Shown: in pieces, positions 49,828 to 64,000 of the stretch
Numbering within the stretch: position 1 is the first letter of the stretch
Layout: each line of letters begins with the position of its first letter
DNA from: Ophelia neglecta
Lineage: Eukaryota
Direction: 5' to 3'
DNA length: 64,000 bases
Assembly: GCA_965285935.1 (NCBI GenBank)
Contig: OZ260663.1
Coordinates: forward strand, 16,244,001 to 16,308,000
The notes under the pieces: model-generated
The model's database searches: none
The model's input: only the letters and a program-made list of their open reading frames with translations
Told to the model about the DNA's origin: nothing
Made by a program: the position numbers and the translations under genes

Positions 49828-51178
49828 ATGGAATTGGCCAAGTACTATTACAGCCGGGTGACTAAGGACACCCCGTCCAGAGAGCGCCTCGCCCTGTCTG
49901 AGGCTCTGGTGACTGACCTGACCGGGCAGTTAGACCGAGGTGTGGAGTACGACCGGGACGCCGTGGCGGAGATCGCTCGGGTCATGCTGAGTGTGAACCT
50001 CGACTCCCTGCACTCCACCCCCGAGCTCAGGGACTGGCTCCTGTCCCAGGAGGTCCGGGATCTGGTGTGGAGGCTCTCTGCCCAGGAGGGGACCGCCTCG
50101 GCCGTCCTCCAGGGCATGTTTGACGGCGTGGCTGAGAGGAGTGTGGGGTTCGATGATATGTGGACGTGGAGTACCGTGTTAGTCAGCTCCTGGTTTCTCG
50201 GGACAGACGGCTCCGTGGTGCCGACATCTCCCGGGTTTTTACTGCTACTTTTCGCATTCTGCTACCGATGTGGCTCAAGACAGGCAGATTACTGTGGACA
50301 ACGCCTTATGAATATTCCCTCCTCAGACGAGCGGATGCTCCCTCTGGTGACAAGGACTCTCCATACAGAGACCTGGGAGTCTCTGGTACAGGGGAACAGT
50401 GCGGGCGACACGGTTCTCCACATAGCCGCGTCCCTAACCCGCCTTCCTCGGGTCACCAGAACCCTGCTGTACCAGACAGACATAGATGTTAATGTGAGGG
50501 GTAACACTGGTAAGACTCCCCTCACACGTCTCATTGGGGGCTCGTCCGTGCTGTACAGTATACACCTCCCCCCAGCCGAGGTCCTACTAGAATACCCGGA
50601 GACCGACGTCAGTCTGTTAGACGACCGGGACAAGACCGTGTTACACTATTGTCTGGACCATCTCGGAGACTCCCCGGCGTCGGTCACAGTGGCTCTGGCA
50701 TTAATTACATTAATATGTCAACATTCCTCGGTCACCCCCGACATGATAAGCAGAGCGCTGGAGAGCCTGTTAGAGTGGGAGGTCTCCCCAGGACTGCGGG
50801 ACCAGTGTTATGGTGTTATAGTAAACCTCGCCACCAACAATAACTATGATATCAACCGTCCAGTGAGAGGCGGGATGACAGCATGCCACCTGGCGGCCAC
50901 ACAGGGGCATTACGCTATTGTGGAAAAGTTCATGGACATAACAGGGCTTGACCCGAACACGCCGGACAGTCTGGGTAACACTGTCCTCTACTACGCATGC
51001 GCCAATTTCCCACCAGAGTCCGTCATGTCTGTAATAGACCACCCAACGGCGACCTGGGACTTCACCCACAAAAACAAAGCAGACCAGACCATCCTGGACT
51101 ATTACAGCCGGTTTCCGGACAACAAGAAAGATCCCACATTATTAGGGTACATTGAGAAATGCTTGGAAGACACAAAAG
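49828..51178 (+). CDS. ANK-caspase coding exon 1: helical N-terminus plus ~6 ankyrin repeats (450 aa)
   Basis: Motifs GDTVLHIAA, DVNVRGNTGKTPL, DDRDKTVLHYCL, GGMTACHLAATQGHYAIVEKFM, DPNTPDSLGNTVLYYAC, KNKADQTILDY; acceptor at 49808; donor AAG|GTAAGG at 51178. Confidence 0.9.
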
Positions 51179-54100
51179 GTAAGGTTGATCAGTATTTTCA
51201 CTGACCAGGAGTAATGTTAAGACCAATATGTCAATGTTTATTACCAAAACCGGCTTCCAGAAATCCGGATTAGCAAGTTAAGGACAATTAAGCACTTGAT
51301 TCCTGATTTTAATCCGAGTCATGAGTTAATACCGCTTCTAGAAATCGGGCCCTGGGTGATGAAAGGCGAGGTAAAGCAAGCCTGGCAATGAGATGATTGT
51401 AATAGTATGAGCTGCAATTGGGTATGGTCGGATTGGGTAGCTTATTTAGTTCGTTGGGTAGACGGAGAGGCAGGTAGGGAATGGGGTCGTGAGAGGTGGT
51501 GTTTGGTGGGATGGGTTATGGTGGTATGGGCCCTAAGCTGGTAGTGACAGGTAGACGGGGAGGCCGATAGGGAATGGGATGGGATGTGGTGGCTTGGGCT
51601 CTAAATCATTGGACTCTAAGAGGTGGTATAAGTTGTCTCGGTTGTAGTGGAATTGCTGATATTAGGAAAATTGTCTTTGGACCTTTGCTGATATTAGCCG
51701 CCTGTCCTTCGCTATTTGAAACAGTTTTCTACTAGAAAAATAGTACAAAATAATATTATTCACCGTTGACTCTTTGCTTTTGTCGGATTCCAGGCGTACG
51801 ATGGGTTCCCTTCCGACCTAGTGATCACATTGATGTCAAATGTTCTACCGCTGAACACTATGCGGACAGAGCAGACGACTGGGTACGTGATACGACTCTT
51901 AAAGGTGTTTAATTCAGCTAACAGAGAATGCAATGTACATTGAGTAGGTCTGATAATACCGTTTGATATATATGAAAAACCAGTGGTGGATACCCGTCAG
52001 ACAAAGACATTGACCAAGAATAGTCCATAAAATAGTTACGAACTCTTCAAGAACCACCAGTCGCTGCACGAGACAAATACAGACGTATACAGGTCTGATA
52101 ACGATACATGATATGTACTATGACATATACAGGTTCAAGCCAAATTGGATTATTGGTTTAAATTGCAAATAAAGTAACCATAAAACAAAACCGTGCACTT
52201 AACACCTGTTCTTAAACAGATAGCACCTTGGAATAAGGGACACCAATCAATTGAGGACAAGTATTTCGGATCTCATCTTTTTAATGCTCGTGAAAACTAA
52301 AGAGTAGTAAAAAGGGCCACATAGGAAAGATGAGACCTACTCGCTCACTTGGCACTTCCAACTTACTGTAATAGCTTTTTATGCAGTTGAACCTGACATT
52401 TCAGAGACGAGTAGTTTCTATTCTTTATTGATGAAGCACAAGGGCATACCTTAGTTGTGATGGAGCGGTATTGATTCCAATTTTGCAGACATATGAGATG
52501 GGTCATGCGTACAAGGGTAAGGCTGGTATTATAGCGATCCACACCTTCTCCGGTAACATGAACAACCTACTTGGCTATAAGCAGGATACGGAGGACCTGG
52601 CGGCCTTGTGGGACGGCCTCGGGTTCCAGGTGGTCGTCCCTGAAAGACGGAACCCGGAAGGAGGCTGTCTTACCGCCGAGGTATGAGTAAAGAGATATAG
52701 GTTTTTGGGTAATACCTCCACAAATAATTCTCTTTTTATTATATGTTCAATATGTTTATTATATGTTCAAATTAACAAAATGTAGTGCATCAGAAATATG
52801 ACGCTTAGTTATTAAGCAGTGGTGGATCCAGGATTTCAGGAGGGGGGGGGGGGCAAATTTTCCAAGGTTGACAAGGTCAATGTCTTTTTGCCCCCCGCCC
52901 CCCTCCTAAATCCGCCACTGTTAATATAATAATGATAATGGGTAAAGTTATGAACTCGTTCCCTTATATGAGTTATCATTGGATCGCGCCTCTAGGAGAT
53001 ACAGTCAGCGGTAAAGCAATTCGCCAGAGAAATCCTCGAGCAAAGTGACCAGTGTGCCGTGCTCTGTATCCTGAGCCATGGAGGCGAGGGTTTTCTGTAC
53101 GGCAGTGATGGTCACACGGCAGACACAAACCAGCTACTCCAGGAACTGGACAATATCAATTGTATTCAGATGGCGGGAAAACCGAAGGTCGTCATCATTC
53201 AGGCGTGTCAGGGAGGTAAGTTTTCAGATGGCGAACAGTAGGAGAGGTATTTGTCATCCATTTGTGTTAAAGATAACCCGTGTTGCCCCGGAATTCAAGC
53301 TAATTAGATATACATTATGCCATCTTTTGGAATAGCCGTTTTTTCACAAAACTGGGCACTACTTTCCAAAAAATAATCATTGCACACTCAGCCGGTATCT
53401 ACTGACTACCGTTGCCAGGTAACCCCACTTTCGTAATACGACCTGGATTAATTCAAATTAAAGTCGCCTTCAACACTAAGTATATCAACTCGCAGCACAT
53501 GCATTTGAAAAGATAACTTTGGACTGTGTTATGAGAATAAGGACAGCCTGTCTAATGGACTACAGCATACTTTTAACACAGGCGATCATAAAAGGTTTAC
53601 TCAGCTCAAGTTTAGTAAAAAAAATACAAAACTTTAATTCGAATATTTGCAGCTTTACTTAATTTGCAAATCGTTTGAAGGCCTCTGCACTTTGCAACAT
53701 ATATGTACTGTACTATGTAAGCCAGTGAGTGCTCTATGTATCCCTTAGCTACCTGATTTGCCTTATAATACATACATTGGGTTCAATGTACGTGTGTATG
53801 TTTACTGGGCGGATTTCGTTCTGTGTCATATGTTCTATACGAGTAACCAAAATGTCAAAGCAAAAAGGCAGATACATCTTTTGTGAAATTAGCTTGTTGA
53901 TTTTTACTTTCAACGAGGAACAGCGCACGTACACTGTTAAAAATAATGGAACAAGCACCATAGGATAATCAGAAATTACCAACTTATTACCTTCATGCTG
54001 GAAACATTATTTGATTGAATTACTCCATAAGACTAGCTGCTGGCTACCTGCTACCCTGGAGCTAGCGTACTACCACCTAGGTTTTAGCTCAACTTTTCCT

Positions 54101-55396
54101 AGCCCCTACCGTGGTGCTACATACCTAACGCCTAGCTGCTGCTTAACCACCACCTAGCTGCTACAAACCGGCTATCTAGAAAAAACGGAAGTGGATACCC
54201 GGCAGATAACACCAGATCATAAAATCTATAATAGGCCATTGATCGGTCTGAAATAATCTGAAACTCACAGTTCGGTAATACTGGTTCTGTAATACCTAAC
54301 TAGCTGTTACCTAGGAGCTATCAGTGTCGTCTGGTAACAAGGCAGCTGTTGTGATTTGGAATATTTCGACTGAGAAAGTAGCTCCCTGACTGTTTTCAAT
54401 GGCCAATGGCGACACATTGATATATTTACCATTTCAGACTGGGCCGATCACGGTGTCCACTTGCGTGCAGGCAGTAACCCTCTCCCCCAGGCCGCGGCTG
54501 GAGGCTATTCAGAAACACATCTACCGTCCGTCTCAGACACTATCGTCTGTACTCCTTCAAGTAGAGGTAAATAATCATTTATTAAAAGAAGGAAGTGTTA
54601 TGAAAGAGTGACATAAATAACATCATGTTATAAAAAGCGAAAGAATACCATGCGGAAAAAAGCAAGTAGTTTTGTTACGAATAATTATCAAACATTTTCC
54701 CCCGGACGGTTACCCTTGTGAACCTTAGCTGTTAAAATATTGGTCATTTTTAACATTCTTTTTTACGGTTAACCATTTTTAGGTTATGTGTCGTTTGTAA
54801 GCGATAGGAGCTTTTACATTAGAACACTTGTAAAGATTTTCGCTCAATTCGCTTGTACAGAAGATGTGTACAGATTGCTTACAATGGTAAGATAGTTTGG
54901 TTTTACTTCTATTCATGTTCTTCTACCGTGTAAAAAAAGCAGAGTCTATCCGGCAGACATGCCTAATCACGAATAACCCATCAGTTTGGTCCGAACTTGT
55001 ATAGAAACCTCCAGCTGCAGGTTGCCAATATCAGTCCCCAGTACCTTAGCTTTAAATAAGCTTGCAAAGGGACAACTTAGGAATTCTTATTATAAATGTT
55101 TCAGTTTGAATGTTAATAAGAGGCTCTAGAAGTAAATAGTGTTTTACTCAAAATTTTTCCTGGAATAAAAATAATTTTCATGCAATGTTATTTCGGCTAC
55201 ACAAATATTTGATAATTTGTGGACATTTTCGCAGGTAAATCGAGAGGTCAGTAAAGATACAGTGCGTGCAATTACACCTGGGTCTACGATTCCAACGGAC
55301 CACAAACAGATGCCACACTTCGGCAGCACATTGAGGAACACGCTGTACTTCTTCCCGTGTCCTGGAGGTAAGGACGGAACCGACTGGCAAACATGA
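49828..55396 (+). CDS. Ankyrin-repeat/caspase (peptidase C14A) fusion gene, ~748 aa (756 aa with the alternative last exon)
   Basis: join(49828..51178,51794..51882,52489..52680,52996..53215,54438..54566,54783..54886,55235..55396). All introns are GT-AG with compatible phases (1,0,0,1,1,0) and no internal stop. Contains ANK repeats, then YEM..KG..F..D..L..LGFQV, ILSHG, GKPKVVIIQACQG, LPSVSD..GYVSF, VNREV and KQMP..STLRNTLYFFP. Confidence 0.85.
51794..51882 (+). CDS. ANK-caspase coding exon 2 (linker GVRWVPFRPSDHIDVKCSTAEHYADRADDW)
   Basis: Acceptor TTTGCTTTTGTCGGATTCCAG, donor TGG|GTACGT; 89 nt converts phase 1 to phase 0, exactly as needed to join the flanking exons. Confidence 0.75.
52489..52680 (+). 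CDS. ANK-caspase coding exon 3 (start of large subunit)
   Basis: TTTTGCAG|ACA...GAG|GTATGA; TYEMGHAYKGKAGIIAIHTFSGNMNNLLGYKQDTEDLAALWDGLGFQVVVP...LTAE. Confidence 0.88.
52817..52920 (-). mobile_element. Family B MITE, internally deleted, in a caspase intron
   Basis: TTAAG|CAGTGGTGGATCC...AATCCGCCACTG|TTAAT; 104 bp. Confidence 0.8.
52996..53215 (+). CDS. ANK-caspase coding exon 4 (catalytic His and Cys)
   Basis: CTCTAG|GAG...GGAG|GTAAGT; EIQSAVKQFARE..CAVLCILSHGGEGFLYGSDG..NCIQMAGKPKVVIIQACQG; His codon 53077-53079, Cys codon 53206-53208. Confidence 0.92.
54438..54566 (+). CDS. ANK-caspase coding exon 5 (intersubunit linker, start of small subunit)
   Basis: ATTTCAG|AC...AGAG|GTAAAT; DWADHGVHLRAGSNPLPQAAAGGYSETHLPSVSDTIVCTPSSRG. 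Confidence 0.85.
54783..54886 (+). CDS. ANK-caspase coding exon 6
   Basis: CATTTTTAG|GT...ATG|GTAAGA; GYVSFVSDRSFYIRTLVKIFAQFACTEDVYRLLTM. Confidence 0.88.
55235..55396 (+). CDS. ANK-caspase coding exon 7 (stop at 55394-55396, or donor after 55367)
   Basis: TTTTCGCAG|GTA; VNREVSKDTVRAITPGSTIPTDHKQMPHFGSTLRNTLYFFPCPG(GKDGTDWQT*); internal GAG|GTAAGG donor at 55367/55368. Confidence 0.85.
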   Translation, partial: VNREVSKDTVRAITPGSTIPTDHKQMPHFGSTLRNTLYFFPCPGGKDGTDWQT

Positions 55397-59823: not shown

Positions 59824-63685
<3,862 letters not shown>

Positions 63686-64000
63686 CTTAAAAAGTGAGTA
63701 GCGATTAAACTCTGTACTTTGTAAGCTTAGTGAGTAGATACAACATAAAAGGAAAGCACAGAAATTCATTCCCTAGCGATCCCCCCCCCCACCCTGGTTA
63801 GTTTGATATGCTCCTTCCATGATGAAAAAGAGTCAACCAAGACACCAAGAAATTGTGTCTCTCCGACCTGGAGACTTATTCATTTTTAATAATTACACCA
63901 CTTTTCCAAAAACCATAAAGTTTGTCTTCTTTACATTGAGGGTTAGCTTCTTTATTTCAAGCCAACGAATTTCGGAATTAAGTTGAGAAACAATATCATT

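Follow-up and report, generated by a model that had tools for sequence, protein, structure and literature searches.

Cleavage after aspartate is the defining property of animal caspases, as stated in PMC11121540, and in these C14A enzymes the Asp pocket is formed by Arg179, Gln283 and Arg341, as described in PMC2064784. Their Arg-directed relatives are described as carrying Leu179 together with acidic residues at positions 185, 283 and 341 (PMC2064784; PMC4357240). In metacaspase helix 1, Cys92 and Asp95 line S1 (PMC4357240), and these two residues would correspond to positions 182 and 185, judging from their spacing and from PMC2064784. Caspase-12 and caspase-14 offer precedents for an altered Arg341 and for linker processing at a non-Asp site (PMC11121540, PMC12292325). 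A gasdermin protease of the bacterium Runella, described in the preprint bioRxiv 10.1101/2021.06.07.447441, has the clan CD dyad, accepts an apolar P1 (Leu|Gly) and is fused to sensor repeats. ANK caspases, in which an ankyrin prodomain is joined to a caspase domain, occur in parasitic flatworms and in the annelid Alitta virens and were placed near DED caspases (PMC11463336), and the ankyrin-caspase fusion by itself is already described. In the open-access literature we found no described animal caspase family in which both arginines are replaced and an alanine motif occupies the linker.

The window analysed here is a stretch of 64,000 nucleotides from contig OZ260663.1 of Ophelia neglecta, and all positions below are counted within it. 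The linker under study belongs to a plus-strand gene at 49828-55396. Its seven exons, separated by GT-AG introns, join into 748 codons without interruption and encode an intact ankyrin-repeat caspase of 748 amino acids. Its parts are as follows.

49828..51178, plus strand: exon 1, start codon and a helical/ankyrin-repeat prodomain of 450 amino acids
51794..51882, plus strand: exon 2, linker from prodomain to protease, recognised by GT-AG ends, frame continuity and colinearity with the intronless retrocopies
52489..52680, plus strand: exon 3, start of the caspase domain, PF00656 positions 1-43, aligned to a caspase-8
52567-52569, plus strand: Leu507 at the Arg179 position, exon 3
52576-52578, plus strand: Tyr510 at position 182, exon 3
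Exon 3, plus strand: Asp513 at position 185
52996..53215, plus strand: exon 4, PF00656 E 1.9e-14, carrying the catalytic dyad
53077-53079, plus strand: catalytic His572, exon 4
53206-53208, plus strand: catalytic Cys615, exon 4
Exon 4, plus strand: Gln613 at position 283
54438..54566, plus strand: exon 5, encoding the intersubunit linker, with no Asp in the residues that separate D621 from D651; junction the same in the retrocopies
54467..54469, plus strand: Ala628, near-invariant linker Ala and putative P1 residue for maturation (V/L-x-A|G/S)
54512..54514, plus strand: Glu643, distal acidic residue, possible secondary site for another caspase
54783..54886, plus strand: exon 6, 341 loop of the small subunit
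54797-54799, plus strand: Val666 at the Arg341 position, exon 6
Exon 6, plus strand: Ser670 at position 347
55235..55396, plus strand: exon 7, last helix, dimer strand and stop codon, colinear with the retrocopies

The product of exon 1 matches Pfam Ank_2, Ank_4 and Ank_5, all above cut-off, and its model (pLDDT 93.6) finds ankyrin solenoids as its best structural matches (top Z 17.9, rmsd 5.5 over 287 residues). Three further observations were made in the window. Intron 3 contains, at 52826-52920, a short inverted-end repeat of very high copy number, where read depth rises about thousandfold. A second version of exon 4 occurs in contigs of public DNA runs (53011-53088) with nine differences in 78 bases, five of them protein-changing (V550I, I557V, Q560R, S561I and E575D), and represents either an allele that has diverged or conversion by a paralog. 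Downstream of the caspase gene, tail to tail with it, exons of a papain-family (cathepsin L-like) protease lie on the minus strand at 59824-63772.

The gene is one of many. A genome search with exon 4 gave 70 matches, and the 60 loci fetched comprised 50 spliced models, two retrocopies and eight loci dropped for want of a usable model (L049, L071, L077, L079, L084 and L088-L090), so that with the window included there are 51 spliced models and two retrocopies; five of the kept models lack an exon, and the incomplete L031 and L032 were omitted from the 42-row tree and the change counts. The models split in two, nine canonical caspases and 44 members of the window gene's family. A search of the genome with the ankyrin prodomain gave 45 matches, mostly adjoining family members and including the earliest branch, L063; the prodomain was not found upstream of L050, L075 and L078 in the stretches fetched. 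Prodomain frames are longer and apparently duplicated in L118 and L121 (789 and 923 residues). Both retrocopies, L005 and L006 (G000 C1:20.78 and 20.93 Mb), derive from an L031-like parent and are intronless; the ankyrin part of each is broken once (frameshift, stop) while the caspase domain is open, and the frames flanking them resemble retroelement pieces. The intron after QACxG is in phase 1 in the window subclade, L063 and the canonical genes and in phase 0 in the other paralogs, a difference that is a one-base shift of the splice site. In the L031 intron past exon 4 (L002:860-1490) there are about 11 tandem copies of the exon 4 end with its donor site, and L003, L004 and L007 have a similar short repeat directly behind their exon 4. 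A separate gene, L104 (G000 C9:40.16 Mb), combines a canonical ankyrin frame of 744 residues with caspase-like exons without the catalytic His and Cys and is probably an ankyrin pseudocaspase.

An initial annotation of this DNA had claimed that the stretch from the D-x-G Asp to the small-subunit Asp contains no further Asp, and the codon positions in exon 5 bear this out. Exon 4 ends in phase 1 after QACQG, and its splicing to exon 5 gives QACQG-DWADHG-VHLRAGS. The Asp codons of the linker region lie at the exon 4/5 junction, at 54446-54448 (D621) and at 54536-54538 (D651), and the 29 residues between D621 and D651 contain zero Asp and one Glu, Glu643, whose position is occupied by Asp in three close paralogs. 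The same annotation had raised the possibility of an Asp-bearing exon between 53215 and 54438, and our analysis rejects it. A cassette scan of this window intron returned one weak in-frame candidate, which has no Asp, and blastn of the intron against 41 paralog introns gave no match. At the linker junction, a 60-base stretch of the retrocopies is identical to the splice predicted for paralog L031; they also run colinear with the window gene and contain no added exon there. Moreover, many paralog introns at the exon 4/5 place measure 160-200 bp, and 10 of 42 only 160-182 bp. Nor is an assembly error supported, as the contigs of three public DNA runs, all from one sample that is possibly the assembly's own source, carry an identical linker with one synonymous variant at 54466. 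We therefore consider the linker observation almost certainly real.

How unusual such a linker is can be seen from caspases outside this genome. At least one linker Asp occurs in 125/125 outside caspases with both S1 arginines and a full linker, and Asp makes up 9.3% of their linker residues; it falls within the first ten residues in 102/125 of them versus 3/44 family members. Within seven residues past the D-x-G glycine, Asp is found in all nine canonical caspases of the same genome and in none of the 44 family members. Since every such outside caspase has a linker Asp and 26 of the 44 family members have none whatsoever (versus 0/125), the absence is beyond chance. As a family trait, however, the loss holds for the proximal Asp only, because 18/44 linkers retain a distal Asp and 36/44 have a distal Asp or Glu.

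The substrate pocket has changed as well. In the canonical caspases of this genome, Arg179 and Arg341 are each present in 8/8 where the exon was found. Among the family members, position 179 is Leu in 40/43, Ile in two and Gln in one; position 341 is Val in 40/43, Ile in two and Thr in one, with Arg341 in 0/43; position 182 is Tyr in 40/43 and deleted in three; position 283 is Gln in 41/44, Glu in two and Ser in one; and Asp185 is invariant (43/43). The catalytic His and Cys are both present in 44/44. Outside caspases have Thr, Ser, Ala, Gly or Asn at position 182 in 124/125, and Leu179 together with Val341 is absent among the 138 outside domain rows (one caspase-8 counted twice), of which 127 have both arginines and the remaining 11 are truncated or misaligned at one site. 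The window gene, with Leu, Gln and Val at positions 179, 283 and 341, thus lacks the basic S1 pocket, and it also lacks the acidic C14B-type pocket, of which only Asp185 is present. The family S1 is neither type, with apolar residues at 179 and 341, Gln283 and Tyr182. A shallow apolar S1 of this kind would fit a small P1, although the loss of Arg179 with Asp185 kept makes a basic P1 possible, as in metacaspases. Specificity within the family may be variable, as a short deletion removes Gly181-Tyr182 in L066, L068 and L069, and Glu stands at 283 in L070 and L072. The earliest branch, L063 (G000 C1:45.55 Mb), has an Arg one place before 179, Ser283 and Thr341 but also Tyr182 and the linker Ala, and is a possible intermediate.

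In its overall build the family remains a caspase of the C14A type, with the fold, the His-Gly/QACxG dyad, Gln283, Ser347, the D-x-G loop and a long prodomain, and the window domain itself shows the SHG and QACxG motifs and the D-x-G loop after its long prodomain. It differs from C14A caspases by Leu for Arg179, Val for Arg341, Tyr182, the missing proximal linker Asp and an ankyrin instead of a CARD or DED prodomain. A model of a retrocopy gives a full caspase fold (pLDDT 89.7; Foldseek probability 1.0, best E 2e-23). MALT1 and metacaspases share with the family Leu179, an Asp six residues on and possible activity without processing; however, C14B enzymes need Asp283 and Asp or Glu at 341, according to PMC2064784, whereas the family has Gln and Val and is C14A by sequence and tree. 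MALT1 also has Ig and death domains, unlike the ankyrin prodomain here, and the genome holds a separate MALT1-like gene (L091:1941-4142), which lies in a single frame and encodes Ig domains as well as a C14 domain. Caspase-12 and caspase-14 are single genes with one conservative change or an intact Asp specificity, whereas this family has lost both arginines to apolar residues. The Runella protease is bacterial and distant, and the change in the family would be secondary, from an Asp-specific animal caspase. The ankyrin fusion in the window gene, compared with the flatworm and Alitta ANK caspases by description only, is probably independent of theirs.

Phylogenetic analysis places the family as one clade, with SH-aLRT 99 in a large, quick tree and 99/95 in a more careful tree of 45 rows from which the linker and S1 columns were removed. 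With these columns removed, its sister is an Asp-type caspase of the same genome, L078 (96/94), itself a long branch (0.97), and the family and L078 lie within a group holding the bivalve caspase-2-like proteins (96/92), so that the family descends from animal caspases, nested among caspase-2-like proteins. An Asp-type sister inside this group indicates that the Asp-directed state was ancestral and was lost once. This bears directly on the earlier proposal that loss of the linker Asp co-varies with loss of the S1 arginines and thereby gives independent support for changed specificity. The co-variation itself stands across the 44 paralogs, the canonical caspases keeping both features, but we reject it as independent evidence, because the tree needs a single state change, on the family stem. 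Changed specificity is still the best reading, and the weight rests on maintenance since the single loss event, not on the co-variation. His and Cys are kept in 44/44 across a tree that spans about 10.7 changes per site. Of 14 pairs compared, 12 have a dN/dS of 0.13-0.27, one recent pair has 0.67 and one was too saturated to yield a value, which shows purifying selection on the family. Asp specificity has very probably been lost, and the family members are likely to be active proteases.

What replaces the Asp in the linker is an alanine. It stands at DxG+5 in 12/12 long-type linkers and at DxG+3 in 28/30 short-type linkers, the remaining two short-type linkers (L056 and L057) having Ala at +2; the resulting count of 42/42 rests on registers assigned by clade and anchored on the D-x-G glycine, with a third register for L056 and L057. 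Short-type linkers represent a two-residue deletion, through which the Ala can be tracked with V-x-A-G/S kept. The Ala column changes not once in the 12 long linkers and once in the 30 short ones, versus 2-4 and 4-12 changes, respectively, at other positions from +2 onward. The Ala is encoded by GCA in 32, GCC in five and GCT in five, and when eight long linkers were shuffled, a column made up of Ala only arose in 1 of 20000 trials. Against this stands the overall Ala content of the family linkers, which is 18%. The pattern around it is Val (38/44), a variable residue, Ala, a small residue (Gly, Ser or Ala in 41/44) and then Pro in 23/44. The residue past Ala is Gly in 21, Ser in 18, Ala in two, Arg in two (L056 and L057) and Pro in one (L050), and Gly, Ser and Ala are also the commonest residues after the linker Asp in outside caspases. 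A strict residue followed by a small one has, at the level of sequence, the look of a caspase site.

Which residue of the linker corresponds to the old Asp depends on the register. The initial annotation had set Arg627 on the caspase-3 Asp (VHLR|AG) by counting from the catalytic Cys, with a caspase-3 motif of its own; this is one of three possible registers, and such counting is unreliable because the distance from D-x-G to the linker Asp site ranges between 1 and 14 residues among outside caspases. In the sister caspase L078, the linker Asp is at DxG+5, followed by Ser, and is colinear with the Ala, which is also at +5 in early-branching members. Alignments to caspase-8 and to paralog L075 place the Asp on the Gly/Ser past Ala, and in that register the Ala would be a retained P2 residue. 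Among outside caspase sites, P2 is Thr or Ala in 39/86, and the site is at DxG+5 in only 1/86. Pro is disfavoured at P1', and its presence two places past Ala in 23/44 linkers argues against a cut one residue later. The annotation had also suggested maturation by self-cleavage at Leu or by an Arg-directed protease. Leu at that place is present in the window gene only, and Arg precedes the Ala in just 7/44, while the Ala itself is near-invariant, so neither cut explains the family and both are rejected as its rule.

Our preferred explanation, to which we give a little less than an even chance, is that these genes encode lineage-expanded ankyrin caspases with a rebuilt shallow pocket, which would be alanine-directed and would cleave themselves after Ala628 (HLRA|GS). 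In this scheme, a trigger bound by the ankyrin prodomain would cause the protease to dimerise, much as happens with initiator caspases. S1 would be shallow and apolar owing to Leu179, Val341 and the newly gained Tyr182, and the active dimer would go on to cut V/L-x-A|G/S sites both in its own linker and in other substrates, largely outside the Asp-based apoptotic cascade.

Other explanations have to be weighed against this one. Paracaspases and type I metacaspases are described as needing no processing (PMC4357240) and initiator caspases as being activated by dimerisation (PMC11121540), and the caspase-8 register aligns the old Asp with Gly/Ser, which Pro often follows; the family members could accordingly be active non-Asp proteases that work as dimer-activated single chains, like MALT1, with the Ala kept for packing of the loop behind the catalytic Cys. 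We regard this as unlikely, because an Ala that shifts with a two-residue deletion, V-x-A-G/S being preserved, behaves more like part of a recognised motif than like a residue fixed in place for packing, and because the confidence of the retrocopy model falls from about 87 to 59 at the linker Ala, as for a flexible loop. Even if the linker is cut, another enzyme might do it, whether an elastase-like protease after Ala, an Arg-directed paracaspase after Arg627 or a canonical caspase at the distal Asp or Glu. For caspase-14, other proteases carry out the processing, at a non-Asp site (PMC12292325), the genome has its MALT1-like gene, and distal acidic residues are common in these linkers; yet they occupy no single conserved place, Arg before Ala is infrequent, and the conserved new S1 residues would be left unexplained, which makes a foreign protease decidedly unlikely.

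The possibility that these are weak or dead caspases, decoys or scaffolds comparable to caspase-12 or cFLIP, in which arginine loss crippled the pocket and an uncut Asp then decayed, is one to which we give little credence. Mouse caspase-12, with Arg341 changed to Lys, is predicted to be non-functional (PMC11121540), and rapid expansion with ankyrin prodomains would suit decoys, but the intact dyad of all 44 members, the conservation of the replacement residues and the linker Ala and a dN/dS of about 0.2 do not. The pseudo-domains of cFLIP and coral caspase-X lose the dyad, unlike this family. Self-cleavage with a different P1 we consider very improbable. In this case the cut would follow Gly/Ser, in keeping with the caspase-8 and L075 registers, or Arg/Leu in the window subfamily by way of Asp185 or the apolar wall, Leu179 and Asp185 resembling half of a metacaspase pocket (PMC2064784); but the residue past Ala varies and is followed by Pro in about half of the linkers, and positions 283 and 341 are Gln and Val rather than Asp and Asp/Glu.

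Searches beyond this genome suggest that the family is not confined to it. The nearest named relatives are the bivalve CARD 'caspase-2-like' proteins XP_033764175.1 and XP_062603141.1, caspase-8 is the nearest solved structure by sequence, and a word-index search with a retrocopy found four distant caspases. Among 1.84 billion representatives there was no full-length relative above about 38% identity, and the best full-length outside matches were only about 35% identical. All 13 short fragments from that search score higher against the family than against canonical caspases, with 52-69% identity, and two more fragments from other collections carry the Leu-x-Gly-Tyr-x-x-Asp signature with 47-56% identity to the nearest paralog here. 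The family likely exists in other species. For prodomain residues 1-240, a search of limited reach gave no relative at E 0.001 (0/2167 candidates), and all ESM Atlas matches to residues 1-190 were under 0.9 and were set aside.

Taken together, these genes may record a switch of specificity from Asp to Ala with a matching self-cleavage site, in an undescribed branch of animal caspases that expanded to about 50 ankyrin-sensor proteases and would serve private proteolytic signalling in more than one species, a reading that we hold tentatively and put clearly short of an even chance. Automatic annotation would label these genes ordinary caspases. If the reading is true, they would provide a natural test of how P1 specificity changes in clan CD, in which pocket and self-cleavage site have both shifted and an Asp-type sister persists in the same genome, and they would supply caspase-fold enzymes that cut at a new site.
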